DNA of 37,422 nt from Dehalococcoidia bacterium (GCA_020351185.1 CP070729.1:986915-1024336), one strand, 5' to 3'. Numbered from the stretch's first letter, positions 6,462 to 22,111 are shown. The notes: generated by a model not told the origin, from the sequence alone. A program made the numbers and translations.

Positions 6462-6716
6462 TTATTCGGCGTAAACGCTTACCTTCCTTTTGTTTTTTGT
6501 GGCCGGTTCATATTTGATAATGCCATCGATAAGGGAGAAAATAGTATGGTCTTTACCGACACCGACATTTTTACCCGGATATATACGGGTACCCCTCTGG
6601 CGAACTAGAATCGTGCCAGCATTAACTTTTTGACCGGCATACCTCTTTATTCCCAGCATCTTGGGCTTGCTGTCACGTCCCAGTCTGGTAGAGCCGCCAC
6701 CCTTCTTATGTGCCAC
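6462..6716 (-). CDS. rpmA: 50S ribosomal protein L27
   Basis: [15 protein letters not shown]... The track starts at GTG 6722. I prefer the second GTG at 6716, which gives the canonical (M)AHKKGGGS and lies 9 nt after GAGG (6729-6726). Overlaps the rplU 3' end. Confidence 0.9.
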
Positions 6717-7086
6717 TTTCACTTACCTCTTTTTTTCGCTTACGGGTTTTTCTGGGTTTTTCCGCTTTTTCACCTGGTTGGCTTATTGTGTCAATGGTAA
6801 GCTTGGTATGTAACTGGCGGTGTCCAGTTTTTTTGCGATAGCGTACCTTTGGTTTATATTTAAAGACGACTATCTTCTTATCTTTAATATCACCCTTGGC
6901 GGTAGCGGAAACGATAGCTCCATCTATTGTTGGATTTCCGATGGTCAGTTTTTCACCATTTGCAATCAATAGTACTTTATTAAGCTCTATAGTATCACCC
7001 TCGTTTACATCGAGACGCTCAACATCTATCGTCTGACCTGGGGCTACTTTATACTGCTTACCACCGCTTTCAATAATAGCGTAAAT
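6706..7086 (-). CDS. rplU: 50S ribosomal protein L21, apparent ATT start codon, Lys-rich C-terminal extension
   Basis: The track ORF (6706-6969) starts internally at a TTG. The same frame upstream encodes the conserved L21 N-terminus (I)[39 protein letters not shown]. An in-frame TAG sits at 7125-7123, and there is no ATG/GTG/TTG between it and YAIIE. ATT at 7086-7084 lies 6 nt after GGAGG (7097-7093). Confidence 0.85.
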
Positions 7087-7130
7087 ATTAGACCTCCATC
7101 TGGGAACTATATATTCTATCAGCTACTTTT

Positions 7131-7727
7131 TTAGTGTGTCAAATTAATATTCTGCCATAGTTCTCCCACCTTCAACTTTAACTCGTCGAGGCTGTAATCA
7201 TTTTTAATAACTACATCTGCTTGTTTCACTCGCTCATCTTCGTTTAACTGGTAGCGGATGCGAGATATTGCTTCATCACGGGAGAGCCCTGTCTTCTGTA
7301 GGCGTTTGATAATACTAGCTTCATTGGCGATGACAACCCAGACGACATCAACCATCGATACCCAGTTGGTTTCAATGAGCAGAGGAGCATCAATTACAAC
7401 TACAGCTGCTCCCCTCTTTTTATATTGTAATAGCTTTTTCTTTACCAATCGATAGATTAGAGGATGCACTATGCAATTTAGACGGGATAATGCCTTGCCG
7501 TCGGCGAAGACTATTTTACCTAACTCCTTGCGGTTTACTGACCCGTCTGTATTGAGGATTTGCTGACCGAAAGAAGCCAAGATTCCTTTTACGGCTTCGC
7601 TATCTGTATTCAGAATTTCATGGCCTATTTTATCGGTGTCTATGACTTTAGCACCTAGCTTAGTTAGCAATCTAGCTATAGTGCTTTTACCACTACCGAT
7701 ACCCCCGGTTAGTCCGATAACTTTCAT
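7131..7727 (-). CDS. coaE: Dephospho-CoA kinase
   Basis: 198 aa. MKVIGLTGGIGSGKST P-loop and overall CoaE pattern. Confidence 0.9.
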   Translation of the reverse strand: MKVIGLTGGIGSGKSTIARLLTKLGAKVIDTDKIGHEILNTDSEAVKGILASFGQQILNTDGSVNRKELGKIVFADGKALSRLNCIVHPLIYRLVKKKLLQYKKRGAAVVVIDAPLLIETNWVSMVDVVWVVIANEASIIKRLQKTGLSRDEAISRIRYQLNEDERVKQADVVIKNDYSLDELKLKVGELWQNINLTH

Positions 7728-7823
7728 ATCACCAAATCCTAACCAGTCTAATCACTAGTAATCGGGTAGTCAAGGTTCCTATTAAATAATAAATGATGTA
7801 AACTGGATTGAAGTGTATACAGA

Positions 7824-8744
7824 GTGGAATTTATGGAAGGCATTTGGATAAGTATAGCCATACTAAGTGCTGCCAGCATAGCCCTGGTGAGTATCTTTGA
7901 CAGCCACCTCATCTCTAAAAGGATGCCCAGTACCAGATCTTATCTATTGATAGTCAGCCCCATCATTATGGTTTCCGCTATTATTATTGCTTTTCTTTTT
8001 CCACTGCCGACTAATGTGAGTTTTTGGCATTTGGTAGTAGCGGTGATTTCTGGATTACTACGAGCTGTATCTGTCATCATACTACTTTATACGCTACGAC
8101 GGGAAGAGGTGTCGCGGGCGGTACCAGTAGTCAGTATATACCCTGTTTTCGTAGCTATTATGGCAGTACCACTTCTAGGTGAAACGCTGAATTACTTACA
8201 AGGATTAGCAATAGCAATTGTCGTTTTCGGTGTGGCTATTATCTCAATAAAGAAACGAACTGGTAACTCAACAAACTGGCTGGGAAAAACCTTCTTTTTA
8301 CTATTGAGTTCAAGCCTGCTTCTGGCGTCGGCTGATGTAGGTAGTAAATACGCCCTTGAACATTTCTCATTCTGGAATATGTACTGGATAAGTATTTTAT
8401 GCATAGCTACTATGCTTCTGGTGATATCATTACGTAAGAGCGTAATAAAAGAACTTACTCAGATCGTAAGGCCACGCACTGCCCTTATGTTGGTGGTCGC
8501 AAATGAAATGCTGGTTGTTGCCAGTGCCATAATGATGTTTTGGGCAATGGAAAGAGGTCCGGTATCTCTTGTTTCCACTTTAACCAGTACCCGCCCATTG
8601 TTTGTGGTCATCTATGTCCTCATTCTGAGTCGTTTCCTACCAAACCTTCTATTTGAAGGTGACTTAGGTAGGGGTGTGATGCTCGTGAGACTTGTTGCCA
8701 CTGCTATGATAGCTGGCGGCATCGCAATAATTTATCTAGTTTAA
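7824..8744 (+). CDS. EamA/DMT-family transporter
   Basis: 306 aa, about 10 predicted TM helices, with the two-fold internal repeat typical of EamA. The start could be GTG 7824 or ATG 7833. Confidence 0.7.
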   Translation: MEFMEGIWISIAILSAASIALVSIFDSHLISKRMPSTRSYLLIVSPIIMVSAIIIAFLFPLPTNVSFWHLVVAVISGLLRAVSVIILLYTLRREEVSRAVPVVSIYPVFVAIMAVPLLGETLNYLQGLAIAIVVFGVAIISIKKRTGNSTNWLGKTFFLLLSSSLLLASADVGSKYALEHFSFWNMYWISILCIATMLLVISLRKSVIKELTQIVRPRTALMLVVANEMLVVASAIMMFWAMERGPVSLVSTLTSTRPLFVVIYVLILSRFLPNLLFEGDLGRGVMLVRLVATAMIAGGIAIIYLV

Positions 8745-8880
8745 TAGTTACCTTCAAACTAACCAGCTGTTTTTAAAAAACAAACTTCACAATCCATCAA
8801 CTCTCGAGAAAGTAAGCAAGCTTTGGTCGTGTCTATAATTAGTGGTTTCCGGGTGATATAATTAGTTAAAGGGTAGAGTT

Positions 8881-9891
8881 ATGCACCGGGCGATGCTCCA
8901 TGAGAGCCTGCTGCAATCTAGAATACGCTGCAATATCTGCCAGTGGCGCTGCCAGATTGGTAAGGGCAAGGGTGGCGTTTGCAAGATGTACCGCAATATA
9001 GAGGGCATCCTGTATAACATGAATTACGCCCAAGTTTCTTCAGTCGCCATTGATCCTATTGAAAAGAAGCCTCTCTTTCATTTCTTTCCAGGTAGTTTGG
9101 CTTTTTCTATCGGTGGTTGGGGCTGTAATTTCCACTGTCAGGGTTGCCAGAATTGGCAGATATCATGTGTTGATATTCCGCAGCATGGACGACGGATTGA
9201 ACCCGAAGAAACTGTAAAGCTGACGAAGGAATACGACTGCCAAGGTATTGCTTGGACATATAATGAACCTACCATGTGGTTTGAATATACACTTGACTCC
9301 GCGCGACTGGCAAAAGAAAGCAATCTTTATACCGTCTATGTTACCAATGGCTATATGACGCCGCAGGCATTAGATACCATAGGTCCCTATTTGGATGCTT
9401 GGCGAGTGGATGTAAAGGGTTTCAGTGATAACCTTTATCGCAAACTGGCGGGGATAAACCACTGGCGCGGTATCCTTGAAGTTGCTATCAGAGCTAAAAA
9501 AAAATGGCAGATGCACATAGAGGTTATTACGAATATCATACCGGGTATGAATGATGACAAAACACAACTTGAAGGTATAGCTGACTGGATTTATGATAAA
9601 CTGGGAGAGCTCACTCCTTGGCACGTAACCCGCTTCTACCCCCATCATGAAATGGCAGACTCACCACCTACCCCAATATCCACGTTGGAGCGTGCCATTG
9701 ATATCGGTAGGAATGCCGGACTTAAATTCGTTTATCTGGGTAACGTGCCAGGGCATGGGGGAGAAAATACGACCTGCTATAACTGTGGTAATGTCATCGT
9801 TAAGAGGTACGGTTATCACGCAGAGGTAGTAGGTGTAAGAGGTTCTCAATGTAAGTTCTGCCGAGCAGAACTTAATATCAAAAAACTTTAG
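8881..9891 (+). CDS. AmmeMemoRadiSam system radical SAM enzyme
   Basis: 336 aa. N-terminal Cys cluster CNICQWRCQIGKGKGGVCKMYRN, DPIEKKPLFHFFPGS, the radical SAM motif CNFHCQGCQNWQIS, and the C-terminal CYNCG...CKFC. Confidence 0.85.
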   Translation: MHRAMLHESLLQSRIRCNICQWRCQIGKGKGGVCKMYRNIEGILYNMNYAQVSSVAIDPIEKKPLFHFFPGSLAFSIGGWGCNFHCQGCQNWQISCVDIPQHGRRIEPEETVKLTKEYDCQGIAWTYNEPTMWFEYTLDSARLAKESNLYTVYVTNGYMTPQALDTIGPYLDAWRVDVKGFSDNLYRKLAGINHWRGILEVAIRAKKKWQMHIEVITNIIPGMNDDKTQLEGIADWIYDKLGELTPWHVTRFYPHHEMADSPPTPISTLERAIDIGRNAGLKFVYLGNVPGHGGENTTCYNCGNVIVKRYGYHAEVVGVRGSQCKFCRAELNIKKL

Positions 9892-9894
9892 GGG

Positions 9895-11220
9895 GTGGTT
9901 ACTATGATAAGAGAAGCGGTAGTGGCGGGCAGGTTCTATCCAGCTTCACCGATTGAGCTCAGGGAAATGATAGCCAGTATGATTGATCAAATGGCGACAA
10001 AAGAAGATGTAATTGGGCTGGTATCGCCTCATGCTGGTTATATCTATTCTGGGCCTGTAACTGGTGCGACGATTTCTCGTGTCAGAATGAGAGATACCTT
10101 TATTATTCTAGGTCCAAACCACACGGGAATGGGTAAAGCTTTCAGTATTATGACCCAGGGTTTTTGGCGTACACCACTGGGTGATGTAGAGATAGATTCA
10201 GAGTTTGCTGGAAACATTGCAGCATTATCAAGCTATTTGGAAAAAGACAGTGATGCCCACCGCTACGAGCATTCCATAGAGGTTCAACTGCCTTTTCTGC
10301 AGTATTTAAAAAAAAATATTAAGTTCGTGCCGATTGTACTAGCCCAGGCTGACGGTACTGTATATAAGGAGATCGGGGAGGCAATAGCTGGAGCTGTAAA
10401 GAAAATAAAGAGAGAAGTTATCATTATAGCTTCCAGCGATATGACACACTACGAATCGCAGACTTCAGCAAAGGAGAAGGATAACCGAGCAATAGAAGCT
10501 ATGCTAGCGCTTAACGAGGATGAATTGATGGAGAAGGTTGAGAGATTAAAAATTTCAATGTGTGGCTATGCCCCCGTGATAAGCCTTATAACAGCCACAA
10601 AAGCACTGGGAGCGGACAAAGCCGAACTGGTAAGATACCAGACTAGTGGTGATACCACCGGCGATTATAGTTCCGTTGTCGGTTATGCTGGTTTAATATT
10701 TAAAAACTACAAGATGTCACCGATTGCGAAATTAGCAAAGGAGGCGGTGGAGACCTTTGTCAAGGATGGCAATATCATATCACCACCGGCTAAACCTACC
10801 ACCGAAATGAAAAAGAAAGCCGGGGTTTTTGTATCAATACATAAATTTGGCCAGTTGCGAGGCTGCATTGGTACTTTTGAGCCAGCACAGGAGGATATCG
10901 CTCGGGAAATAATAGCCAATGCCATTAGTTCAGCTACACGAGATCCCCGTTTTCCAACGATTACCACCAGTGAATTAGGTGATTTAAGATACAGTGTGGA
11001 TGTGTTGACAAAACCTGCGCCAGTGAAGGATAAAAATAGACTGAATCCAAAAAAGCACGGTGTGATAGTGGAGGGTAATTTGAGAAGAGGTTTATTACTG
11101 CCGGACCTGGAGGGAGTAGACACTGTCGAAAAACAGATTGATATCTGCTGCCAGAAAGCTGGTATAGATCCTGATGAGCCGGTGAATCTGTATTGTTTCT
11201 CGGTGAAGAGGTTTAAATAA
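9895..11220 (+). CDS. Fused Memo-like (AmmeMemoRadiSam protein B) / AMMECR1 (protein A) protein
   Basis: 441 aa. The N-terminal half has VAGRFYP, SPHAGYIYSG and LGPNHTG (Memo). The C-terminal roughly 170 aa has GVFVSIHKFGQLRGCIGTFEP and RDPRFP (AMMECR1). The start could be GTG 9895 or ATG 9904; the latter lies 8 nt after GGGGG. Confidence 0.85.
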   Translation: MVTMIREAVVAGRFYPASPIELREMIASMIDQMATKEDVIGLVSPHAGYIYSGPVTGATISRVRMRDTFIILGPNHTGMGKAFSIMTQGFWRTPLGDVEIDSEFAGNIAALSSYLEKDSDAHRYEHSIEVQLPFLQYLKKNIKFVPIVLAQADGTVYKEIGEAIAGAVKKIKREVIIIASSDMTHYESQTSAKEKDNRAIEAMLALNEDELMEKVERLKISMCGYAPVISLITATKALGADKAELVRYQTSGDTTGDYSSVVGYAGLIFKNYKMSPIAKLAKEAVETFVKDGNIISPPAKPTTEMKKKAGVFVSIHKFGQLRGCIGTFEPAQEDIAREIIANAISSATRDPRFPTITTSELGDLRYSVDVLTKPAPVKDKNRLNPKKHGVIVEGNLRRGLLLPDLEGVDTVEKQIDICCQKAGIDPDEPVNLYCFSVKRFK

Positions 11221-11238
11221 AATCAGCAAATGAGGTGA

Positions 11239-12573
11239 TTGAGAATGGATATGTTTGAGCATCAGTTTGAAAAGAAAAGATTGAGAGAAGCACCTCTGGC
11301 GGCACGAATGAGACCAACCGGCTTTGACGAGTTCGTTGGACAGGAACGCCTTGTGGGTAAACGGCGGGTTTTAAGACGGGCAATTGAATCAGGCAAGCTA
11401 CCATCAATTGTCCTGTGGGGACCGACAGGCTCCGGTAAAACTACACTCGCATTTATTATCGCTAGTGTTACCGAATCCCATTTTAGCCCGGTCTCTGCTG
11501 TTAGTGCTGGTGTTGCTGACTTGAGACGCATAATTGAGCAAACGACAGAGAATCGCAAGATACAACATAAGAGAACCATACTCTTTATAGATGAAATTCA
11601 CCGCTTCAACAAAGCACAACAGGATGCTATCCTACCCTTTGTTGAAGATGGCACTATAACGCTTATCGGGGCAACGACTGAAAATCCCTCTTTTGAGGTT
11701 ATTTCGCCACTACTTTCACGTTGTCAGGTTTTCAGATTAAATCCCCTTACTGCAGACGAACTCCGCATAATAATATTCAGAGCGTTGAAGGATGGATTGC
11801 GTGGCCTCGGTGCTTTGAAGGTAGAGCTAGCTGATGATGCTATGGAACATATTATTGCAATGTCAAATAATGACGCCAGAGCTGCCCTTAATATACTTGA
11901 AATGGCAGCACTAACCACGCCTGAAGGTGACAACGGTAAACGCTGTATTTCGTTGGAAACAATTGAAGAAGCCATTCAACAACGCTCCTTAACCTATGAC
12001 AAAGGTGGTGAACAGCACTTTGATACAATATCCGCCTTGCATAAATCAATGCGAGGTTCAGATCCAGATGCATCTATCTATTGGTTAGCGCGTATGCTGG
12101 AAGCAGGAGAAAATCCCCTATATATCGCCCGCCGTCTAGTGCGTTTTGCGTCTGAGGATGTCGGCATGGCTGATCCTCAGGCACTGGTAGTAGCTATGGC
12201 GGCACAGCAGGCAGTTCATTTTATCGGTATACCGGAAGGCAATCTGGCTCTAGCAGAGGCGGCGGTCTATCTTGCAACTGCCCCCAAGAGCAATTCCCTT
12301 TATCGAGCTTATTCACAAGTACAGGAAGAATTAAAAAAGGGCTCGGCTGAAGAGGTACCGCTGCACCTGAGGAATCCAGTAACATCTCTGATGAAGAATG
12401 TTGGCTATGGCAAAGGTTATAAATATGCCCATGACTACCCTGGTCATTTTGTAAAACAGCAAAATCTCCCCGATTCACTTAAGGATAAACGCTTCTATGC
12501 GCCTGGTGATCACGGCTACGAGAGACAAGTTGCCAAACGTCTGAAAAATTGGTGGCACGGAAGAGATTCTTAG
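11239..12573 (+). CDS. rarA: Replication-associated recombination protein A (AAA+ ATPase)
   Basis: 444 aa. [15 protein letters not shown], Walker [29 protein letters not shown], and the MgsA C-terminal domain ([26 protein letters not shown]). Confidence 0.92.
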
Positions 12574-12627
12574 ATTAGAGAATGAACAGCTGTTTATCCT
12601 GTCGGTAGGAGTAACTCTTTTATCTCC

Positions 12628-12657
12628 TTGACACCCCTTCCTGCCGGTGTTTATACT
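12628..12657 (+). promoter_or_regulatory. Putative sigma-70-type promoter for the tRNA gene
   Basis: TTGACA at 12628-12633, a 17-18 nt spacer, then TTATACT at 12651-12657. About 20 nt upstream of the mature tRNA 5' end. Confidence 0.5.
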
Positions 12658-12675
12658 AGTATTGTATAGTTTTAT

Positions 12676-12750
12676 CGCGGGGTGGAGCAGTGGAAGCTCG
12701 TCGGGCTCATAACCCGAAGGTCGTTGGTTCGAATCCAACCCCCGCTACCA
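12676..12750 (+). tRNA. tRNA-Met (CAT), initiator type, CCA encoded
   Basis: Hand-folded cloverleaf: acceptor CGCGGGG/CCCCGCT, D-stem GAGC/GCTC, anticodon arm TCGGG-CTCATAA-CCCGA, variable loop AGGTC, T-arm GTTGG-TTCGAAT-CCAAC, then ACCA. Initiator hallmarks are three G:C pairs closing the anticodon stem, A11:U24, and an unpaired 1:72 position (C1/U72). Near-identical in layout to E. coli tRNA-fMet as I recall it. Confidence 0.9.
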
Positions 12751-12764
12751 ATTATTGACGTCAT

Positions 12765-12784
12765 GAGGCGAAAGCCTCTTTTTT
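12765..12784 (+). terminator. Short terminator hairpin after the tRNA
   Basis: GAGGC-GAAA-GCCTC followed by TTTTTT (12779-12784). Confidence 0.5.
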
Positions 12785-12793
12785 ATTAGCGGT

Positions 12794-13006
12794 ATGAAAA
12801 TCATCTGTTACTGTTACAAATACACCGAAGCTGATATCAAAGACGATTTATTGAAAAACAATGGGCGTTCATCTATCCTGGAGCAGATAGTCGAAGAGGC
12901 GAGGAACAAGACGTGCCAGTGTGACATCTACCACCCCGAAAAAAGATGATGCCTTGAGGATATCCGCCGTGTAGTGGACAAATATAAAAAGAGTAAAAGG
13001 TTTTAA
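12794..13006 (+). CDS. Small Cys-rich BFD-like ([2Fe-2S]-type) protein with in-frame TGA; candidate selenoprotein (or recent nonsense pseudogene)
   Basis: Not in the ORF track. ATG at 12794. Translation: MKIICYCYKYTEADIKDDLLKNNGRSSILEQIVEEARNKTCQCDIYHPEKR-TGA(12947-12949)-CLEDIRRVVDKYKKSKRF-TAA. CxC...CxC...(U)C layout. The frame stays open and sensible for 18 codons after the TGA. Confidence 0.55.
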
Positions 13007-13007
13007 T

Positions 13008-13048
13008 GAAGGTCGTTAATTCGAATCAAACCCCCACTATTAATTATT
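13008..13048 (+). repeat. Degenerate copy 1 of the tRNA-fMet 3' end (att-like remnant)
   Basis: gaaggtcgttaattcgaatcaaacccccactattaattatt compared with tRNA 12716-12756 gaaggtcgttggttcgaatccaacccccgctaccaattatt. 35 of 41 positions are identical by manual alignment, including 6 nt 3' of the CCA. Confidence 0.75.
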
Positions 13049-13058
13049 TGAAAGTGGA

Positions 13059-13088
13059 ACACAGGTGAGAGAACCTGTGTCTTTTATT
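13059..13088 (+). terminator. Terminator-like hairpin following repeat copy 1
   Basis: ACACAGGT-GAGAGA-ACCTGTGT (8-bp stem) followed by CTTTTATT. Lies between the convergent genes ending at 13006 (+) and 13090 (-). Confidence 0.6.
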
Positions 13089-13089
13089 A

Positions 13090-13554
13090 CTAGAAGCATC
13101 CCAGCTGGCATCCGCTAATTTTGAGACCCTGAACGCTTGCTTCATTTGCAATAGTAATTGGTTTTAGCTTAAATTCTTGACCTAGTTCAAATATTTTTGT
13201 ACATGTAAGCTGATTGCTTTCTGCTAATGTCATAAGCATTGTAACAATTTCACCATCTAGACATTTATTTGCTGGATTATCATAAGTAGTCTTCTCTTTC
13301 TTGTAAAAACCAATCTGGCAATCGGTTATCCGGATACCTAATTTATCAGCAATTTCTCCTACGGCAATTTTAGTAACCCTCGCTTCCTTTGCTATATCCC
13401 ATGCAACGGGACAAGAAATATACCCATCTCCTAATGCAGCCTTAACCATGGATTCTAAATGGGCAAGCTCTTCTTTCGAGAGGTTGTCGGGGTTATTTGG
13501 TATTTGGATTCTTGCACTCTTTTTTACTCTACTGGCATCATTAAAATCTCTCAT
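13090..13554 (-). CDS. Hypothetical protein with two tandem Cys-bracketed HTH-like modules
   Basis: 154 aa. AGGAG lies 5 nt upstream of the ATG. Internal duplication: ISCPVAWDIAKEARVTKIAVGEIADKLGIRITDCQIGFY and LTCTKIFELGQEFKLKPITIANEASVQGLKISGCQLGCF. I do not recognise the family. Confidence 0.6.
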   Translation of the reverse strand: MRDFNDASRVKKSARIQIPNNPDNLSKEELAHLESMVKAALGDGYISCPVAWDIAKEARVTKIAVGEIADKLGIRITDCQIGFYKKEKTTYDNPANKCLDGEIVTMLMTLAESNQLTCTKIFELGQEFKLKPITIANEASVQGLKISGCQLGCF

Positions 13555-13663
13555 AATAACTCCTACAATTTATATAATAAGATTATATTACATAGCTAAT
13601 TAAATTGTATTTCATCAAGTGTATATAAGACTTTCTCGCTACAGGAAACAGCCTAGTAGTATT

Positions 13664-13696
13664 GTTGGTTCGAATCAAACCCACGCTACAAATTAT
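13664..13696 (+). repeat. Degenerate copy 2 of the tRNA-fMet 3' end
   Basis: gttggttcgaatcaaacccacgctacaaattat compared with tRNA 12723-12755. 30 of 33 identical by manual alignment. Followed by a hairpin plus T-run at about 13709-13739. Confidence 0.75.
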
Positions 13697-13762
13697 AGAA
13701 GTTGAGATCGCAGGTCTAGAGGCCTGTGTTATTTTTTTATCCAATATTTTAGGAAACCAAGA

Positions 13763-14290
13763 TTAGTACTTCTGCCATCCCATACCTTGTATTAAACCCC
13801 GTATATAAGACATCTGACCTGCATGCAAGAGACTGTCTTCTAAAACACTTATGATACGTACACCCACAGTCGGTAGCGGTTGAAACCAGGGTTCGTTAAG
13901 CTCTTTATCTAAGTCAGATTTAGATAAGGTTGTAAAGTATTTCATTGAGCGCCCCGAAACCGCTTTTTGGTAATCAAGCAAAATTTGTATATCTGGTGAT
14001 GTAAAATCTTTTAATTGTTCCGTATTATGACCAAATCCGATATCCCCTGGATCAGCTGGCCGGTTAAACCTTGTATACCATTTGTCTTTAATCCATAGTT
14101 GTTCCACTCCTATTAAAGAAGAAATTTGGGCATCCTGTTGACGTGTGAGATGCCAGGCAAGCCAACCTATACTATTGCTATCATCCTGAGGTTGCCAGTT
14201 GAGGTCATCATGTTTTAATCCTGTCAGAGTATGTTTCATGAATTCGTAAATTCGTGAGTAACCATCCTCGATTAAACCTTGCCACTCCAT
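13763..14290 (-). CDS. DinB-family protein
   Basis: 175 aa. Four-helix-bundle DinB pattern: L.GL..DDLNWQP....NSIGWLAWHLTR..D, and a C-terminal HAGQMSYIRGL. Confidence 0.75.
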   Translation of the reverse strand: MEWQGLIEDGYSRIYEFMKHTLTGLKHDDLNWQPQDDSNSIGWLAWHLTRQQDAQISSLIGVEQLWIKDKWYTRFNRPADPGDIGFGHNTEQLKDFTSPDIQILLDYQKAVSGRSMKYFTTLSKSDLDKELNEPWFQPLPTVGVRIISVLEDSLLHAGQMSYIRGLIQGMGWQKY

Positions 14291-14410
14291 ACGGTACCTT
14301 CCTTCGCATAAAAATATCGCTACAAAGAGTAGTGTGAACAGTTAAAATGATTGAACCTTGTGGATTCTTTTTACCATAGAGCTTACTTGAACCTCGGCTG
14401 CTAAACTTAA

Positions 14411-14438
14411 TTGGTTAGAATTCAATCCTCGGCACCAA
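14411..14438 (+). repeat. Possible third, most diverged copy of the tRNA 3' end
   Basis: ttggttagaattcaatcctcggcaccaa compared with ttggttcgaatccaacccccgctaccaa. Weaker similarity may extend upstream to about 14392 (tcggctgctaaactta versus tcgggctcataacccga). Confidence 0.4.
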
Positions 14439-14468
14439 AAGGATTACTTAGGATGATATCCAGAAACA

Positions 14469-14987
14469 TCATTGTTTAAAGATGCCTTCATTAGAGAATT
14501 TCTTGTTGCCCCTAAGGAAAACTATTGAGAAACGACCACCTTGTCTAAGCTTAGAAATCGCAATTTCAAAGTCAGATGCATTAGCAATATTCTGCATGTT
14601 TAATTCTGTAATAATATCATGAGGTTTCAAGCCTGTTCTTTGAGCGGTTGAATCTGGTTTAACACTACCGATGTATGCACCAAACACGGTACCTATTCCT
14701 TGTTGAGTAGTTATTTTACTAGCATCTGTTATAGAAACACCAAAAGAGATCTTTTGCTTTTGGTTGAGGGCTTTTTTCAATTTTACTTGATCGAAGCCAA
14801 CGATTGTTTGATCATTGATTATGGTAACCGGCACTCCCATTTTACCGGTTCTATTGATAAGTTCTCTTGCTGCGCAAGGATCGGCAGAAACATCACGTTT
14901 AGTGTAATCTATTTTTTGTTGCGAAAGGAAATCTTCCACCATATTACAGTAGGGTCATGTGGGGCTTGTGAAAATGGTTACATCCAA
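14469..14987 (-). CDS. Glutaredoxin-like (UPYC) - PDZ fusion protein with in-frame TGA; candidate selenoprotein
   Basis: The track ORF (14469-14942) starts after the active site. The same frame extends upstream to TTG 14987-14985, 8 nt after AGGAG (15000-14996). Translation: (M)DVTIFTSPT-TGA(14957-14955)-PYCNMVEDFLSQQKIDYTKRDV...GVPVTIINDQTIVGFD. The TGA sits exactly at the first Cys of the CPYC glutaredoxin motif. The C-terminal half has a PDZ-like pattern (GAYIGSVKPDSTAQRTGLKPHDIITELNMQNI...FSIVFLRGNKKF). Confidence 0.65.
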
Positions 14988-15235
14988 TTAAGTAACTCCT
15001 GCGTTATTTTTTAATAAAAGTATATTATAAAACTTGAACAAAAGATACATCGATAAGTATTTGCCATTATTGGATGAATAAAACCAGAAGTTCTAGGTTT
15101 ACCGCTAAACCGAGATCACTTTTTCGGATGATACTACAGATTAATACCATATGATCGATGTGATTTAAGTCATATACAATCAGCCATAAACTTAATAAAA
15201 TAATGTTAAGTTAAAAAAAGAAAGGAGACGTTGTT

Positions 15236-15724
15236 ATGAGCTTAATTATAAGAAGAAATGGTGGAGAGAGAGCTTTGGTACCGTTATTTAGTGCGCCGAG
15301 TGTGCTTGAGGAATTTGATGCACTTGCAAGGAAAACTTGGGATTACTGGCCATTTTCAACGATTGAAAATGTAATGCCAACGATTGATGTTTATGAGGAG
15401 AAAGGCGAGCTAGTAGTAAAGGCGGAATTACCTGGTATCAGTAAGGAGGACTTGGATGTAACCCTTGAGGGTGATAAGCTAACCATAAAAGCCGAGAAGC
15501 AGGAAGAGATAGCTGAGGAAACTACCCTACACAAACGCGAGCGCTATTATGGGCAGTATTTCCGTTCCGTTACACTACCTTATCCGGTTTTGGAAAATGG
15601 AATATCGGCTACAATGGAAAATGGTGTTCTTGAATTAAGGTTTACCAAGGCTGAAGAGGCGAGGGCTAAAAAGATCGAAATTAAGGGTCAGTTAACAAAA
15701 GGAAAAAAGAGAGCTAAGAAGTAA
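15236..15724 (+). CDS. Hsp20/alpha-crystallin small heat-shock protein
   Basis: 162 aa. AAAGGAGA RBS. Alpha-crystallin domain PTIDVYEEKGELVVKAELPGISKEDLDVTLEGDKLTIKAEK...ENGVLELRF. Confidence 0.9.
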   Translation: MSLIIRRNGGERALVPLFSAPSVLEEFDALARKTWDYWPFSTIENVMPTIDVYEEKGELVVKAELPGISKEDLDVTLEGDKLTIKAEKQEEIAEETTLHKRERYYGQYFRSVTLPYPVLENGISATMENGVLELRFTKAEEARAKKIEIKGQLTKGKKRAKK

Positions 15725-15747
15725 GGTTGAATAATTGGGAGATTGCC

Positions 15748-15780
15748 AAAGGCTGGGTTTCGGCCCAGCCTTTTGATTTC
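15748..15780 (+). terminator. Rho-independent terminator after hsp20
   Basis: AAAGGCTGGG-TTTCGG-CCCAGCCTTT followed by TGATTT. Confidence 0.7.
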
Positions 15781-15980
15781 CGAATATATATTGATGTCCT
15801 GTAACATTCTCACGAGGAATGTAAAATTTGTAGATATGGGGATAGTTTATCCGAGACGAATAATTATCGAAAACGATAAAGCGAAATCACAGAAAAATGT
15901 GATTTCTATTACATCCGTAAATGCATATCAATATTATATTACTTTAATATAGTTTATATATATTAACAGGAGTCAGGGTA

Positions 15981-16160
15981 ATGCCTTTATATGAGTATAG
16001 TTGTAATAAATGCGATCATATATTTGAAAAATTTAAAGAAACTGGTAGTAGTGCTGCAAGCGTAGTATGTCCAAAGTATGGTGTAAAGAATTCAAAGCGG
16101 ATTTATTCAATATTCAACAGCTTAAGTCAAAATTACATTCCACGGTTTAGTGGTGGTTGA
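15981..16160 (+). CDS. FmdB-family zinc-ribbon protein with a degenerate second Cys pair
   Basis: Not in the track (59 aa). AGGAG lies 9 nt upstream. MPLYEYSCNKCDHIFE...VVCPKYG. The family consensus is MP.YEY.C..C...FE....CP.CG; here the last Cys is Tyr (TAT). Confidence 0.6.
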   Translation: MPLYEYSCNKCDHIFEKFKETGSSAASVVCPKYGVKNSKRIYSIFNSLSQNYIPRFSGG

Positions 16161-16356
16161 GGGTTATAAAAATGAGGCAGTTTGCTTCGAATGCTAAGTC
16201 TATGAGTGGAAATTACTTCTATGAATGGAGTAGTCTTTATCGACAGGAATATGTGTTGGAATTAATAACGATTACAATATCGAGAAATAAATAGCTAATG
16301 AAGTCATACAAGAGGCAATAAGATTCAGTTGAGCACCAGCTTTATCAACGATGTAA

Positions 16357-16542
16357 TGGATAAGTTATTATCCATTGATGATATTAATAATCGGGCTATG
16401 TTTGATGGTTATGGAATATTCTACGAAGAGGTTTTGTTTGCTATAATCATGAAGGAGATGCTTTTTTAAAATGAATGAAACAAATCTAACATGTATGAAG
16501 AAGCTACGAGCAGAAGATTTCAACATGGTATATCGTACTAGG
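16357..16542 (+). pseudogene. Decayed TfoX/Sxy N-terminal-domain gene
   Basis: One frame reads MDKLLSIDDINNRAMFDGYGIFYEEVLFAIIMKEMLF-TAA-NE-TGA-NKSNMYEEATSRRFQHGISY-TAG. This matches the TfoX_N pattern (..MFGGYG.FY.G..FA.I....L.FK....N...YEEAGS..F) but has three in-frame stops. Confidence 0.55.
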
Positions 16543-16687
16543 AAGTATCAGCAAAAATTCTAGGCGACGGGAATCGATTGAGTAAGTGAGCTGAAATATC
16601 ATTAGATATAGCAGCAAGAAAAGCCATTAAAAACCGATGATAGCAAAACCAAATTACTAGTATATTATTACACATCATTAAAGTGTT

Positions 16688-17017
16688 ATGAGTAAAAATA
16701 ATCCTAGGCTTTTCCGTGAGGGCAAAACCATTGAGGTAATGATAGCTATTTATTGTCGGAAAAACCATTTTACTGACCCATTATGCCAACAATGTGAAGA
16801 ACTCCTAAAGTATGCCCACAAAATGCTTGATAGATGTCCTTTTGGTGAGAACAAAACTACCTGTGTAAAATGTCCGATACATTGCTATAAACCCCAGGCA
16901 AGACAAAAGATAAGAGAGGTAATGCGTTATTCTGGACCGCGAATGATATATCGCCATCCGTTAATAGCAATACGACATCTTGTAGACGGGTGGAGAACAA
17001 AGACAATTAAGAATTAA
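16688..17017 (+). CDS. Nitrous-oxide-stimulated promoter (YgbA-like) family protein
   Basis: 109 aa. Cys pattern C..C......C.F...K..C..C..HCYKP..R..IREVMRYSGPRM...HP, typical of this family. Confidence 0.75.
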   Translation: MSKNNPRLFREGKTIEVMIAIYCRKNHFTDPLCQQCEELLKYAHKMLDRCPFGENKTTCVKCPIHCYKPQARQKIREVMRYSGPRMIYRHPLIAIRHLVDGWRTKTIKN

Positions 17018-17028
17018 AGAAAATAGTT

Positions 17029-17604
17029 ATGGAACAGGATAAGGTGCATTATTTCAAAGACCGCTATCAATGGTACCAATGGTTGTTAAAAAACCACAAT
17101 ACCACTCATGAAATATGGTTGCTGCATTACAAGAAGAGTAGCAACAGAGTCGGTATGACGTATGACGAGGCTGTCGAAGAAGCAATTTGCTTTGGGTGGA
17201 TAGACGGTAAGTTAAAAAGCATCGATAACGAGACGTTTCTTCTTAGATATTCACCGCGAAAGGCTAGGAGCGTTTGGTCGATGTTAAACAAAGAAAGGGC
17301 AGAGAAGCTCATAAAAATGGGTAAGATGACAAGTGCCGGACTGTTAAAAATAGAAGAAGCGAAAAGAAATGGATATTGGAACAAGGCCTATACAAATAAA
17401 AAGAAGGACAAATTGCCTGATGACCTCAAACAGGCTCTATTAAAGGATTCTAAAACGTGGAGTAATTTTAGTAATTTTGCTAACAGTTATCGCAATACAT
17501 ATATAGGTTGGGTAGAAAGTGCTAAGACGGAGGAGACAAGAAAAAGACGTATTGCTGAAGTCGTAAGGCGTTCTCTGATAAACAAAAAACCTGGAATTGT
17601 ATAG
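17029..17604 (+). CDS. YdeI/OmpD-associated family protein
   Basis: 191 aa. WLLKNH....IWLLHYKK......MTYDEAVEEAICFGWIDG......D...FLLRYSPRK..S.WS..N, plus the C-terminal ...YIGWVESAKTEETRKRRI. Confidence 0.75.
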   Translation: MEQDKVHYFKDRYQWYQWLLKNHNTTHEIWLLHYKKSSNRVGMTYDEAVEEAICFGWIDGKLKSIDNETFLLRYSPRKARSVWSMLNKERAEKLIKMGKMTSAGLLKIEEAKRNGYWNKAYTNKKKDKLPDDLKQALLKDSKTWSNFSNFANSYRNTYIGWVESAKTEETRKRRIAEVVRRSLINKKPGIV

Positions 17605-17625
17605 CCAAAGGAAAAATTGATATTT

Positions 17626-18387
17626 TTACCATATCTTAGGTATTAGGGCTTTACGCTCTGGTGGGTAATCAGTAAAATTATTTCGATACCACAGGTGATG
17701 AGCCCATGCCCTAGGACTAAGATTGGCGAATGTCCAGAATGCAAATGCTAACCCAGGTAGCGACCATGTTGCCACTGCCCAACCACTCCATATCATAATT
17801 TCACCGAAATAATTGGGGCATGATATAAAGCGAAAGAGTCCCGAATTTGATATTTTGTAATCGCACGAATCAGATCTACGAAGCTGCCGCAGAGAATTAT
17901 CCGCCTGACGGTTTATAATAAACCCGACGATAAAAAGGACAAGACCGGTTATAAATCGCGGGTCGGTGAGCCATTCATTTGTATAGCCAGAAGAGAAGGT
18001 AAAGATATAACGACCGTTTAAATATCCATTTACCGTATTAAAAAATAAGGCGAAAATAATAATTATTACAGGTATCCGGTTGGCTGAGGTTTGCAATCCG
18101 AAGGGATAGATGAAGGACCTATGAATATAATGTAATAGCCAAAGGGTGAGGAACACCAGTATAGTCGGTGTGATTTTATTGTCACCGAAAACAAATAATA
18201 TAAAGAATACAATAGGAGCTGGGGCTTCCATAACAATCCAGCTTAGTTTGTTATTGATAGCGGGTCCCCAGCCACGGCGTGAATGCCGACCATAAGGAGC
18301 GGCAACAAAGAATAGAGTACCGAATACGGCTAATGCCAATACAAACCAACTGATAAGAAGTGTGTTGAAAAAGGTATGTTCACTCAT
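17626..18387 (-). CDS. 3-oxo-5-alpha-steroid 4-dehydrogenase (SRD5A/DUF1295-like) family membrane reductase
   Basis: 253 aa, polytopic. C-terminal CPNYFGEIMIWSGWA...NLSPRAWAHHLWYRNNFTDYPPERKALIPKIW matches the steroid 5-alpha-reductase C-terminal domain. Confidence 0.75.
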   Translation of the reverse strand: MSEHTFFNTLLISWFVLALAVFGTLFFVAAPYGRHSRRGWGPAINNKLSWIVMEAPAPIVFFILFVFGDNKITPTILVFLTLWLLHYIHRSFIYPFGLQTSANRIPVIIIIFALFFNTVNGYLNGRYIFTFSSGYTNEWLTDPRFITGLVLFIVGFIINRQADNSLRQLRRSDSCDYKISNSGLFRFISCPNYFGEIMIWSGWAVATWSLPGLAFAFWTFANLSPRAWAHHLWYRNNFTDYPPERKALIPKIW

Positions 18388-19399
18388 GATTTACCCAATA
18401 TATTTTATCTTCTATGGCTTTATTATATCCGTTTTGCCCGAACCAGGAGACGGAATCTCTAATGGACTGTATTGCAGGTCGGGTAGTAAAACCAAGCTGC
18501 AGTCGGGCTTTCTCGGAGCTTATTAAAGAATTGCTACGGAGCACATCTATAGAATAGGTAGTAAAACGAGGTTTCCTTCTGGTCAGTCTGTAGTAAATGG
18601 GCGAAAAATAAGCTGCAATTCTAGCTAACCATAGAGGTATTTTTATATTAGGTGCCTTCACTCCGCTTATTTTCTGTAAGATTTTCATCAATCGGTAGAC
18701 GCTAATTTGTTCCCCAGAAAAAATATACCTCTCACCGCTTTGTCCTTTCTCACCAGCAAGGATAATGCCCTTTGCCACATCACGCACATCCACATAATCG
18801 TAAGTACCATCTATATAGGCTTTCAAGTTACCATTGATGAAGTCTAAGATGAGCTGACCCATCTCAGATATACGAAAATCATAGGGACCGATAATTCCCG
18901 TAGGGTGGACTATCACTGCATCCAACCCTCGCTTCACTCCTTCCAATATCACCATTGTAGCTCGGGCTTTGCTTCTACCGTAATTTTCAGTCACCCTCCT
19001 GGGATTACATGAAAGTGATTCATCGAAAATGGTGCCATGCGGCGGCTCTTCAATGGCATGAATAGAGCTTATATAAACGAGTCTCCTAACGCCTACCCGC
19101 ATGCAAGCTTCTACAACGTTTTGAGTACCAGTTACATTAACCTGCTCTACAAGTTTATCCCTACCTGGTAGAATCGATATGATACCGGCTAGATGGTATA
19201 CCATTCTGCTACCTTTGAAAGCTTGTATGAGAGTGTTAAGGTTGCGTACATCACCTTCAGCTATTTCTACCTTGAGTCCTTTAAGGGGATTCAAGTCTTC
19301 TGTAGGTAGCGTTAACGCCTTAACTTTCAAGCCCCTTTTTAAAAGCTGGCGGACGAGGACATTTCCAATATGACCGGTAGCGCCGGTAACTACAACCAT
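18380..19399 (-). CDS. NAD(P)-dependent epimerase/dehydratase (extended SDR; 3-beta-HSD / dihydroflavonol-reductase-like)
   Basis: 339 aa. VVVTGATGHIGNVLVRQL Rossmann motif and a YGRSK catalytic motif. Overlaps the downstream reductase gene by 8 nt. Confidence 0.8.
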   Translation of the reverse strand: MVVVTGATGHIGNVLVRQLLKRGLKVKALTLPTEDLNPLKGLKVEIAEGDVRNLNTLIQAFKGSRMVYHLAGIISILPGRDKLVEQVNVTGTQNVVEACMRVGVRRLVYISSIHAIEEPPHGTIFDESLSCNPRRVTENYGRSKARATMVILEGVKRGLDAVIVHPTGIIGPYDFRISEMGQLILDFINGNLKAYIDGTYDYVDVRDVAKGIILAGEKGQSGERYIFSGEQISVYRLMKILQKISGVKAPNIKIPLWLARIAAYFSPIYYRLTRRKPRFTTYSIDVLRSNSLISSEKARLQLGFTTRPAIQSIRDSVSWFGQNGYNKAIEDKIYWVNHE

Positions 19400-19487
19400 A
19401 ATTATCCACCAGAGCTGTATTTTATATTATCCGATGTTTTATATAAAAATACTGAGAAATTTAATATCGAGCTTAATAAATTGTCTT

Positions 19488-20831
19488 TTATTTTAGTAAA
19501 TATAATATTAAATCTCCAACATTAGTATTAGTATTACCAGTTTTAACTAGTGAATCACCGATCTTGCTAAGTAGTGCGTTACTGTCATATCTTGCGATAT
19601 AAGCATCAAAATCCGATTTGCTGGTTCTAGCTTTGGTCTGAGAGTTTTTATCAACAATAGCACCTGCGACATCTGGCAAAAAATCCGAACCATCGGTGTT
19701 AATACTAGCTACCACCCACTGACCAGGGTATCTATTCATAGCTATTATGGATTCTGCAGCATAGTGCTGGTTGCGACCTCCCATACCGACTGAATTTGGT
19801 AATCTTGGAGTCGTTTCACCTCCAAGAATTAAGGCATCATAACCAACGTATTTCTTTTGAAGTACTTCGTTAGCCCGTTCAACAGCAGCATTGGTAGTAT
19901 CCCCCTGCTGCTCGGCGGTAACTAGAAGCGGAGTGAATCCAATTTCTCGTGCTTTGATTAACATAGCTTCCAGAGCCACCTTGTTATCGCCGATTATATG
20001 GTTGTAACAGTTATCTAAATGTTTTGCTGTTTCGGAAACAATCCCATAACAGCCTTTTTCGAGATGAGTAAGGACATTTTTGGGTGTTTTGGATAATAAT
20101 TCGTATTTCTTCAGCACATTGAGGGCATCCGAGAATGTTGATTTATCAGGATAAGTAGGCCCAGATGCGATGACCGATAGATCATTACCGATAACATCAG
20201 ATATTATCAATGTAATCACACTCGAGGGAGCAAAATGAGAACCGAGCTGCCCTCCTTTTGTTGAAGAAAGGTGCTTCCTAACGATGTTGACTTCCGCAAT
20301 ACTGGCTCCGGAAGCAAGCATAATTGAGGTTATTTTTTGTTTATCTTTTAGGCTGATTCCAGTAGCAGGATAGGGCATCAATGCCGAACCGCCCCCTGAA
20401 ATCAAACATATTATTGTATCATCCCTGCCGATAGCGTATTTTTGCTTTAATGCCAGCATTTCTTTCACACCGATGATACCCCTATGGTCAGGAATGGGGT
20501 GGCTGGCAGTGATTAACTTTATATTTTTCGTTTCGTAGTCATTACCTTTACAGTTAACAATACCTGCCGTAATATGTGTAGCTGGTATTATATCCTCCAG
20601 TTCCTTTGCCATCTTAGCGGAGGCCTTACCACCACCGATGATAAAAATCCTGCCTCTGGCCAAATTATAAGTGGTATGATTTATATTCAATACCCTGCTT
20701 GTTATATCATAATGCAGTGCCCTTCTCATAAGGTTCGACGGTAATACATGCTCGATACCGGCTTCAATAATATCAAGGGCATTTTTTCTCAGTTCGGTTG
20801 TAGCTAGTTGTATTCTATTTTTTATTATCAT
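19488..20831 (-). CDS. Glycerate 2-kinase (DUF4147 + MOFRL family)
   Basis: 447 aa. IFIIGGGKASAKMA, CLISGGGSALM and LGGETTP.....GMGGRNQHYA are typical of MOFRL glycerate kinases / TtuD-like proteins. Confidence 0.8.
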   Translation of the reverse strand: MIIKNRIQLATTELRKNALDIIEAGIEHVLPSNLMRRALHYDITSRVLNINHTTYNLARGRIFIIGGGKASAKMAKELEDIIPATHITAGIVNCKGNDYETKNIKLITASHPIPDHRGIIGVKEMLALKQKYAIGRDDTIICLISGGGSALMPYPATGISLKDKQKITSIMLASGASIAEVNIVRKHLSSTKGGQLGSHFAPSSVITLIISDVIGNDLSVIASGPTYPDKSTFSDALNVLKKYELLSKTPKNVLTHLEKGCYGIVSETAKHLDNCYNHIIGDNKVALEAMLIKAREIGFTPLLVTAEQQGDTTNAAVERANEVLQKKYVGYDALILGGETTPRLPNSVGMGGRNQHYAAESIIAMNRYPGQWVVASINTDGSDFLPDVAGAIVDKNSQTKARTSKSDFDAYIARYDSNALLSKIGDSLVKTGNTNTNVGDLILYLLK

Positions 20832-20933
20832 AGTAATTAACCAGGGTTATAGTCATTAAACTACCAATTAACCAGATTAGGCTGTTGATAGTATATTCGT
20901 TTGATATAATAAAACCAAAAAGGGAGGAATACA

Positions 20934-21182
20934 ATGACGAAAAGAGAAAAAAAAATAGTTGTTGTCTATTCTACTCCTGCCTGTCCCATTTGCAGACGAG
21001 CAAAAGCTTATCTTAAAAAGAGGGGTGTCGACTATAAGGATATTGATGTCTCTGCCAGCGAAGAATCCGCACATGAGATGATTCACCGCTCTGGACAGCT
21101 GGGGACACCAGTAATCTTCGTTGGTGAGAAAATGATGATTGGTTTTAACCAGAAGAAAATGGAAGAGATGTTAGCAAGGTAG
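20934..21182 (+). CDS. Glutaredoxin-like protein (YruB/NrdH-like, CPIC active site)
   Basis: 82 aa. VVVYSTPACPICRRAKAYLKKRGVDYKDIDV...GTPVIFVGEKMMIGFN. Confidence 0.85.
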   Translation: MTKREKKIVVVYSTPACPICRRAKAYLKKRGVDYKDIDVSASEESAHEMIHRSGQLGTPVIFVGEKMMIGFNQKKMEEMLAR

Positions 21183-21237
21183 GACCGGTATATTATCAAG
21201 ACTTCATGAGGAGCTGGTTTTACTGTTAACTAAATGA

Positions 21238-22107
21238 TTAAAGATTATCTGCAATCTTGTACATATTATCATAGGACTTGCCAAAGTTTGGATTCTTGGC
21301 CTCAAGTTTTTGCCTGATTATTTTCATGTGGCTAATGAATTGCTGCTTGTCCTTTTGTTTTACAAGCTCAGCCCAATTTTCGCAACTTTGGAGAAAAAGC
21401 TTTTGGAAATGTGGTAGGTTTGGGAGATTCATTTGTAAGGAAGCATAGAGTTCGGGGTCCTCTGAAATGACACTTTCCACCAGAGTCAATAATACCTTAT
21501 AGGTTATACCACCCACGGACTCCATTTCTTTCATTCGCTCAAGGTTTGCCAAACTGTCAGCGGAGGCTATAGCAATGAAATGAGCTAGCCCTAGAATGAC
21601 AGCCATCAAATCATCGTGCTCTAGCGGAGTCATAAAGCGGACTTTAGCTCCCTTTGTTTCTAGGTATGATTTTATTTTGTTTGCTAGTCCCCTTTCCTGT
21701 TCAGTTGTAGGAGTCAGCACGAAATTCTGATTAACAAGGCTTCTAGCACCAGGACCGAATACCGGGTGTGTTCCTAGAATTCGACCTTTTGCTATGTACT
21801 TATGCATGGTCTCCACCGGAAGTGTTTTTACCGAAGTAATGTCAATAATGGTTTGCTCAGAGTGGGTATATGGGCTGAGTTTCTTTACAGTCTCTTCGAA
21901 ATTGTCTACCGGCACGGAGATTAAGATTACATCTGCCTGCCTGGTATCCTCCATACTCGTGGTTATGGAAACATCAAGCTGCTGTTTGATTTTTTCAAGC
22001 TTTTGATTGCTTCTACCCACTAGCAATACCTCTTTACCCTCTTGTAAAAAAAAGCGGGTAAACCAATTCCCCATTTTACCCGAACCGCCAATAATAGCCA
22101 CTCGCAT
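21238..22107 (-). CDS. tyrA: Prephenate dehydrogenase
   Basis: 289 aa. MRVAIIGGSGKMGNWF Rossmann motif, THPVFGP, and the PDH C-terminal helical domain. Confidence 0.88.
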   Translation of the reverse strand: MRVAIIGGSGKMGNWFTRFFLQEGKEVLLVGRSNQKLEKIKQQLDVSITTSMEDTRQADVILISVPVDNFEETVKKLSPYTHSEQTIIDITSVKTLPVETMHKYIAKGRILGTHPVFGPGARSLVNQNFVLTPTTEQERGLANKIKSYLETKGAKVRFMTPLEHDDLMAVILGLAHFIAIASADSLANLERMKEMESVGGITYKVLLTLVESVISEDPELYASLQMNLPNLPHFQKLFLQSCENWAELVKQKDKQQFISHMKIIRQKLEAKNPNFGKSYDNMYKIADNL

Positions 22108-22111
22108 CTCT

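Follow-up and report, generated by a model that had tools for sequence, protein, structure and literature searches.

We analyzed a 37,422-nucleotide stretch of DNA from Dehalococcoidia bacterium (GCA_020351185.1, CP070729.1:986915-1024336), here called the window, focusing on one minus-strand gene that encodes a glutaredoxin (Grx) domain fused to a PDZ domain. A TGA codon stands in its reading frame at the first position of the Grx active site. The list of open reading frames (ORFs) produced mechanically for the window begins the gene at 14942, downstream of this codon. A first-pass annotation made from the sequence alone had proposed a longer gene that reads through the TGA and encodes a candidate selenoprotein. 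The parts of the gene, including a hairpin resembling a selenocysteine insertion sequence (SECIS), are listed here in window coordinates.

15000-14996, minus strand: Shine-Dalgarno motif AGGAG, read directly, 8 nt 5' of the TTG start
14469-14987, minus strand: full Grx-PDZ coding sequence, 172 codons including the predicted selenocysteine (Sec) 11; start TTG at 14987-14985, stop TGA at 14471-14469
14957-14955, minus strand: in-frame TGA, position 1 of the U-P-Y-C active site, placed by Sec/Cys comparison and homolog alignment
14940-14942, minus strand: internal ATG, the start chosen by ORF callers, read here as a conserved structural Met of helix alpha-1 and not the true start
14939-14921, minus strand: SECIS-like hairpin GUGGAAG-AUUUC-CUUUCGC, 7 bp including 2 G-U pairs, -6.9 kcal/mol
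14805-14981, minus strand: Glutaredoxin domain, residues 3-61; the YruB/NrdH-like model reaches about residue 75
14499-14747, minus strand: HtrA-type PDZ domain, residues 81-163, with the carboxylate-binding-loop motif F-G-V

Reading the DNA directly bears out the proposed frame, which runs upstream of the internal Met through the TGA to a TTG with a properly spaced AGGAG. The TTG is followed by GAT GTA ACC ATT TTC ACA AGC CCC ACA, the TGA, CCC TAC TGT AAT and the ATG at 14942, after which the frame is open to the stop; translation from the TTG gives L/M-DVTIFTSPT-*-PYCN-MVEDF. The start can lie no further upstream because an in-frame TAA occupies 14990-14988, the end of the 8-nt spacer between AGGAG and TTG. 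CAGGAG is kept at the same distance in four relatives from the clade of the window gene (loci L081, L084, L085 and L087), and the start codon is conserved in this clade as TTG or GTG. The internal ATG, in contrast, is not preceded by a Shine-Dalgarno motif.

For domain searches we used the product with Cys substituted for the TGA-encoded residue. The added codons complete the N-terminus of the Grx domain, as the first-pass annotation had held: the Pfam model Glutaredoxin (PF00462) matches over model positions 1-59/60 with 63.1 bits against a cut-off of 22.9 (E = 2.8e-17), and the U/C-x-x-C motif lies at the N-terminus of helix alpha-1 (U-P-Y-C, residues 11-14). Other Grx residues invariant in the family are the cis-Pro context V52-P53 and G64-F65-D66. 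The window contains a second Grx of the same YruB-like type, which served only as a comparator:

20934-21182, plus strand: stand-alone Cys paralog with the active site CPIC (TIGR02196, 84 bits)

The two Grx domains align residue for residue, without gaps and with 34% identity over 74 residues, and the TGA falls on Cys17 of CPIC, in agreement with the alignment first proposed.

The PDZ domain scores 37.4 bits against a cut-off of 27 with PF13180 (PDZ_2, E = 3.1e-9) and 31.9 bits against 23.2 with PF00595 (E = 1.7e-7). Its phi-G-phi loop is conserved, with F82 and G83 invariant or nearly so, and we assign it to the PDZ domains on scores, fold and loop. Also invariant or nearly so is the C-terminal EG(I/V/L)(F/L) (E167, G168). 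No NCBIfam model reaches its cut-off with the protein: TIGR02196 gives 75.4 bits against 88.55, Uxx_star 55.5 against 66 and the Trx7/PDZ selenoprotein model 27.3 against 300. An AlphaFold2 model was made for P0003, a Cys homolog 63% identical to the window protein. It has a mean predicted local distance difference test score of 86 and shows a linker helix between a Grx fold (beta-alpha-beta-alpha-beta-beta-alpha) and a PDZ fold; its predicted template-modeling score is 0.57, so the orientation of one domain to the other is unreliable. Because the protein opens with strand beta-1, it has no signal peptide and is predicted to be cytoplasmic. The first-pass annotation had named the envelope among possible targets; this suggestion is not supported, and we reject an envelope localization for lack of a signal peptide.

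Two length classes are seen among the 226 relatives retrieved from 5.8 billion proteins. Those of the first class have 170-173 amino acids and the N-terminus M-D-V-x-V-Y-T-S-P-T-C-P-Y-C, and those of the second have 155-158 amino acids and all start exactly at the Met one residue past CxxC. Among the best 120 clusters of this search, 59 are N-terminally truncated and 61 are full-length Cys forms. We also ran an exhaustive hidden Markov model search of 1.84 billion representatives, which yielded 78 Grx-PDZ representatives at 50% identity. Every complete one (26 in all) has CxxC; 33 of the 78 begin at profile positions 16-18, and 18 begin further in. The fusion that the first-pass annotation had called unusual is so only in part: it is not a one-off, and with about 85 clusters at 50% identity it forms a sizeable family in Chloroflexota. 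The sought-after Cys- and Sec-containing orthologs of the full-length protein were both found when DNA was compared at 47 genomic and 7 metagenomic loci, all from Chloroflexota and mostly from metagenome-assembled genomes (MAGs) of Dehalococcoidia. The codon for the first active-site Cys is TGA at 29 loci and TGT or TGC at 22, and at none is it TAA or TAG. On a neighbor-joining tree the Sec and Cys states are interspersed, with at least 10 switches by Fitch parsimony. The TGA aligns with the catalytic Cys of the Cys homologs, of the in-window paralog and of cGrx1, a clostridial selenoprotein to which we return below.

The DNA upstream of the annotated starts behaves as coding sequence. In the upstream DNA read for four truncated database proteins, we found a start codon (ATG, GTG or TTG) with a Shine-Dalgarno motif, then the conserved N-terminal segment and a TGA in frame. 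The N-terminal segment xDVxVYTSPT is conserved among the relatives, and in the nine codons 5' of the TGA the entropies of the three codon positions are 0.31, 0.47 and 1.63 bits. This pattern equals that of the Cys forms, and the segment is therefore translated in this frame. Sec/Cys homolog pairs and coding conservation on both sides of the UGA, two of the standard comparative signatures of selenoproteins, are thus both present in the family. Loss of coding conservation upstream of 14942, or orthologs starting at the internal Met without a Grx active site, had been named in advance as outcomes that would speak against the proposal; we find conservation upstream, and the Cys orthologs have the full N-terminus and CxxC.

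These comparisons bear directly on the simplest alternative, that the 157-amino acid ORF from the ATG at 14942 is the real gene, that the TGA ends a meaningless upstream ORF of 10 codons, and that the product is a PDZ protein whose Grx part is a headless remnant without redox activity. That ATG is the start used by ORF callers and all public annotations, and the Met is conserved in the subfamily of the window gene. Yet full-length Cys forms conserve this Met just as well (CPYCxMVKEF). Among the Sec forms, L083 has Thr in its place, and none of those in the sister (GYC) subfamily has it; there the next Met comes 25-50 residues later. The ten upstream codons are conserved at the protein level with variation in third positions, and the ribosome-binding motif is conserved before the TTG and missing before the ATG. 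A start at 14942 would also leave unexplained the Sec-specific hairpin described below. We consider this alternative exceedingly improbable.

Two observations on the locus set stand apart from this comparison. The MAG "Chloroflexi bacterium 54-19" (MKTJ01) encodes two Grx-PDZ paralogs, one with Cys (TTPTCVYC, L030) and one with Sec (TTPT-TGA-PYC, L045). Two Sec-form loci, L014 and L015 (MEIIVYSTPT-TGA-PYCRMVKEF), gave tblastn E-values out of order and failed the downstream motif filter, which may reflect a frameshift or sequencing error further into the gene.

No convincing SECIS hairpin had been recognized by eye in the first-pass annotation, which reported a weak GGAA-GAU-UUCC stem; this stem turns out to be the inner part of the longer hairpin at 14939-14921. 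Counting the U of UGA as 1, a hairpin begins at nucleotide +19, i.e., 15 nt past the codon, in 29/29 Sec forms. Typical forms, written as stem-loop-stem, differ between the subfamily of the window gene (PYC) and the GYC subfamily.

PYC subfamily: GUGAAAGA-GUU-UCUUUCAC
GYC subfamily: GUCAAGA-GCUU-UCUUGAC
GYC variants of the stem: GCC...GGC, GCU...AGC, GUU...AAC

All Sec forms and almost no Cys form have a hairpin of 7-8 bp at this position. On average, the Sec forms have 7.0 contiguous pairs with an energy of -7.8 kcal/mol; for the corresponding segment of the Cys forms the means are 3.4 pairs and -3.85 kcal/mol (Mann-Whitney p = 1.6e-7, uncorrected for phylogeny, although no fewer than 10 independent switches underlie it). 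In the GYC subfamily, 97.8% of the cells of the stem alignment pair, three pairs show double-sided compensation, and none of 500 shuffles reaches the observed score. Published constraints for bacterial SECIS (bSECIS) elements are a loop of 3-9 nt, a stem of 4-16 bp, a G in loop position 1 or 2, a distance of 16-37 nt from UGA to loop and a minimum free energy of -7.5 kcal/mol or lower (PMC13188914). By a by-eye tally of the fold listing, about 18 of the 29 Sec forms satisfy all of these, with typical loops GUU, GCUU and GUUU at -8 to -10.7 kcal/mol. The hairpin of the window gene lies within the limits for loop (5 nt), stem (7 bp) and spacing (22 nt).

Several results for the window gene itself weigh against its being a selenoprotein gene. 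Its hairpin narrowly misses two of the published constraints, as the loop AUUUC has no G and the energy is -6.9 rather than -7.5 kcal/mol; the G is missing because a Glu codon GAG became Asp GAU. The stability of the hairpin is not exceptional among synonymous recodings (z = -1.2). In the PYC subfamily, the stem pairs in 92% of cells, and its changes are one-sided wobble changes only, with no double compensations. The gene also evolves fairly fast, with 30 nonsynonymous and 20 synonymous differences from L081, a syntenic metagenome contig that shares 84-88% nucleotide identity over window positions 6251-23917. Finally, the window shows no sign of a Sec-decoding apparatus: ARAGORN and Rfam found only a tRNA-Met and no tRNA-Sec in its 37 kb, and Pfam scans of 40 window ORFs detected no SelA, SelB or SelD.

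The rate of change and the lost loop G could be taken to mean that the gene is a pseudogene or is decaying after a recent nonsense mutation of TGT or TGC to TGA in its lineage; a single substitution would suffice for TGY to become TGA. Persistence of the whole arrangement speaks against this. In L081, TTG start, TGA and hairpin are all retained, and the codons flanking the TGA differ by synonymous changes. Five diverged clade members (68-83% amino acid identity) keep the TGA, an intact frame of 170-173 codons, the Shine-Dalgarno motif and the start, and such persistence extends to 29 loci overall. Nonsense mutation would also have produced TAA or TAG and struck other codons of the gene, and none of this is seen. 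The stem is preserved in the clade through wobble-compatible changes. The G-less loop is common to the whole clade, named MVEDF after its sequence past the active site (the window gene, L081, L084, L085 and L087), and all five members keep the TGA and the stem; from this we read the loop as a probable clade-specific SECIS variant rather than a sign of decay. Some bona fide bSECIS elements are known to fall outside the consensus (PMC13188914). An Rfam scan around the TGA with a permissive E-value of up to 10 recovered no SECIS family, only a Plasmodium snoRNA and a fly long noncoding RNA at E 5-10. Altogether, we regard decay of the gene as very unlikely.

The lack of decoding genes within the window and the deviant loop would also be compatible with recoding of the UGA to something other than Sec, i.e., to Cys or Trp by a near-cognate or suppressor tRNA, or to Cys delivered in a SelB-dependent manner. 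Further searches were likewise negative, as tblastn with E. coli SelA, SelB and SelD found no match in the window and 87 fetched loci, and ARAGORN found no tRNA-Sec at 32 related loci. On the other hand, TGA is a normal stop codon here, ending 8/43 window genes including the Grx-PDZ gene itself, and the recoded codon is that of the nucleophilic residue in a UxxC redox center, the classical position for Sec. The closest characterized relative is a native selenoprotein, and Sec use is documented in Dehalococcoidia, with MAGs carrying 46-49 selenoproteins on record. Insertion of another amino acid thus appears highly improbable. General reassignment of TGA was considered separately and is ruled out because TGA ends those 8/43 genes. 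A scan of the whole window for other ORFs that read through a TGA gave no further credible candidate.

The characterized relative in question is cGrx1 of Clostridium (Alkaliphilus) oremlandii OhILAs (PDB 7C10, 7C12), a native selenoprotein with a U/C-P-x-C center, which has been proposed to reduce the selenoprotein MsrA (PMC7642778). It is the closest match to the Grx domain in both sequence and fold: the family profile matches PDB 7c10 with E = 9e-23, the P0003 model superposes with a template-modeling (TM) score of 0.90 normalized by target, and the window Grx domain is 38% identical to cGrx1. Both are short YruB/NrdH-like Grx folds with Sec first in U/C-P-x-C (U-P-H-C in cGrx1), right after strand beta-1 (TS.T-U-P.C). 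Unlike the window protein, cGrx1 is a stand-alone Firmicute protein of about 85 residues without a PDZ domain, and its proposed partner is MsrA. More broadly, Grx with UxxC is among the experimentally verified selenoprotein families (PMC13188914, PMC9312934).

Among NCBIfam models, the YruB family (TIGR02196) is the best match for both the Grx domain and the in-window paralog, although by the NCBI criterion neither is a member because both fall under the cut-off. YruB and NrdH proteins differ from the window protein in being single-domain Cys proteins. Relatives of the YruB/NrdH type often use reductants other than glutathione.

The Trx7/PDZ family (NF041199), listed as a predicted selenoprotein (PMC13188914, PMC9312934), resembles the window protein in joining a thioredoxin-fold redox module to a PDZ domain and in having Sec-containing members. 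It has a Thioredoxin_7 rather than a Grx domain, CxxU rather than UxxC and about 390 amino acids; the NF041199 match to the window protein covers the PDZ part only, and at the score given above the protein is not a member. The UXX-star selenoproteins (NF041212, NF041211, NF041114) have a Grx-like fold and Sec-containing members, but no PDZ domain, and the window protein stays below the cut-off of their closest model (NF041212). We take their name to mean that Sec lies near the C-terminus (U-x-x-stop) and not in an N-terminal UxxC. For residues 79-170, the best sequence and fold matches are PDZ1 of HtrA/DegP/DegQ and the PDZ domain of RseP, with which the phi-G-phi loop is shared; in Foldseek the PDZ domain of the P0003 model matches the HtrA PDZ domain 7l71 with a TM score of 0.73 normalized by target. 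In HtrA and RseP the PDZ domain is carried by proteases acting in the envelope, whereas here it is carried by a redoxin that is cytoplasmic as judged from its sequence. Among the papers searched, none joined glutaredoxin, PDZ and Chloroflexi or Dehalococcoidia.

Weighing these lines together, we are confident that the Grx-PDZ gene is a genuine selenoprotein gene, as judged from Sec/Cys pairs, conserved coding sequence before and after the TGA, and the hairpin of the Sec forms, and the first-pass proposal of a UPYC selenoprotein is upheld to that extent. The protein is a PDZ-fused variant of a known Grx selenoprotein family, widespread but systematically mis-annotated in Chloroflexota. Translation would begin at the TTG at 14987 and yield a 172-residue cytoplasmic selenoprotein, with the UGA at 14957-14955 decoded as Sec by SelB and Sec-tRNA(Sec), and SelB presumably recruited by the hairpin within the coding sequence at 14939-14921. 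In the YruB/NrdH-like Grx domain, Sec11 of U-P-Y-C would be the attacking and Cys14 the resolving residue, and a helical linker is predicted to connect this domain to the HtrA-type PDZ domain.

By analogy with cGrx1 and MsrA, the Sec center may reduce disulfides, sulfenates or selenenylsulfides of client proteins, and a thioredoxin-reductase-type enzyme or a low-molecular-weight thiol could act as the reductant. By binding exposed C-termini or beta-strands, the PDZ domain may hold the redox module on its clients, probably damaged or unfolded cytoplasmic proteins. We infer that the protein is a Sec-dependent thiol-disulfide reductase whose PDZ domain tethers it either to clients or to a partner, in pathways of oxidative stress or proteostasis. 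The idea of tethering to clients derives from the stress-related character of the neighboring genes. Two of these flank the gene in the window.

15236-15724, divergent from the Grx-PDZ gene: Hsp20 gene, stress-related
13763-14290, minus strand: DinB-fold gene of the mycothiol-transferase type, on the same strand, 178 nt downstream of the Grx-PDZ gene

In the clade, the neighbors include an M48 peptidase, a peptidyl-prolyl isomerase and rubrerythrin (L084), ClpB and DegV (L085), and rubredoxin and a flavodiiron protein (L087). The neighborhoods vary within the clade, and this counts against the PDZ-targeting and client-repair parts of the proposal.

The same selenoprotein could instead use its PDZ domain for self-assembly or for docking to a fixed partner such as a protease or chaperone, possibly through the C-terminal E-G-x-hydrophobic tail. 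The near-invariance of that tail is consistent with this role, and the HtrA-type PDZ domain drives oligomerization in DegP and DegQ, the closest structural matches. Grx-PDZ genes of the sister subfamily adjoin dxr-rseP at 11-13 loci, and the M48 peptidase, ClpB and Hsp20 found near genes of the clade of the window gene would suit a partner of this kind. However, the conserved C-terminus may simply be the last beta-strand of the PDZ domain, and gene neighborhoods are not conserved in this clade. We hold such a fixed role to be possible, though not the likelier function of the domain.

In the GYC subfamily, the gene context is conserved. At L011, L013, L018, L019, L022-L024, L026-L029 and others, the gene order over about 3 kb on either side is a histidine-kinase fragment, an OmpR-type response regulator, a Crp/Fnr regulator, a 2x[4Fe-4S] ferredoxin, a small protein, Grx-PDZ, dxr and rseP, with each element present at 11-22 loci. 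The small protein has about 80 amino acids and the motif C..HH(Y/F)W..CxxC, and the final gene encodes an RseP-like M50 protease.

A bolder, combined proposal is that Grx-PDZ is a client-targeted selenoenzyme of a new class, a cytoplasmic reductase that depends on Sec to repair protein thiols and whose HtrA-type PDZ domain captures exposed C-termini or beta-strands of oxidized or unfolded proteins, and that the G-less, U-rich loop of the bSECIS in this clade implies a co-evolved SelB specificity. We put this forward as a speculative and, taken as a whole, rather doubtful idea. If Grx-PDZ were such a reductase, selenium redox chemistry would be linked to protein quality control in the strictly anaerobic Dehalococcoidia.

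For annotation, about half of the Chloroflexota family is stored as truncated entries of 155-158 amino acids without the catalytic residue, labeled "PDZ domain-containing protein", "glutaredoxin 3" or "S1-C serine protease". Annotation pipelines will keep missing the family because no NCBIfam model captures Grx-PDZ. The loci also constitute a natural data set on bacterial SECIS elements that coexist with coding constraints and on the advantage of Sec in a CxxC redoxin, in which the state changed between Sec and Cys no fewer than 10 times, with one short hairpin gained or lost at each change. Knowledge of Sec decoding itself is unchanged by the finding.

Some further observations concern the surroundings of the gene. 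A promoter and terminator scan gave counts equal to the shuffle expectation and nothing useful near the Grx-PDZ gene. The upstream stretch 15024-15047, TTGTTCAAGTTTTATAATATACTTTTAT, contains a perfect TATAAT at 15029-15024 that the consensus promoter scan did not flag, and this stretch is identical in the window and L081 (about 9944-9975), while the flanking intergenic DNA has diverged. The DinB-fold protein encoded at 13763-14290 scores 170.2 bits against the NCBIfam cut-off of 170 for the mycothiol transferase MST_Rv0443; a mycothiol-type S-transferase is unexpected in a Dehalococcoidia-like genome. Downstream of both genes, a 154-amino acid ORF (13090-13554, minus strand) has no Pfam or NCBIfam match and resembles two repeated halves ending in ...ITDCQIGFY and ...ISGCQLGCF. 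The stretch from about 12761 to 13664 has no counterpart in the otherwise syntenic L081.

Elsewhere in the window, an FmdB-type zinc-ribbon ORF (15981-16160, plus strand) reads CNKC ... CPKYG, its second CxxC being degenerate (Cys to Tyr) with no TGA involved; the FmdB family is listed in the literature as predicted UxxU selenoproteins. A ribosomal protein L31-like ORF at about 6250-6470 (minus strand) lies in the gap between the ORFs at 5279-6181 and 7131-7727, below the listing threshold of 90 amino acids. On the plus strand at 8881-11220, a radical-SAM gene precedes a gene in which Memo and AMMECR1 are fused; together they make up the known AmmeMemoRadiSam trio, here with two of its parts joined.

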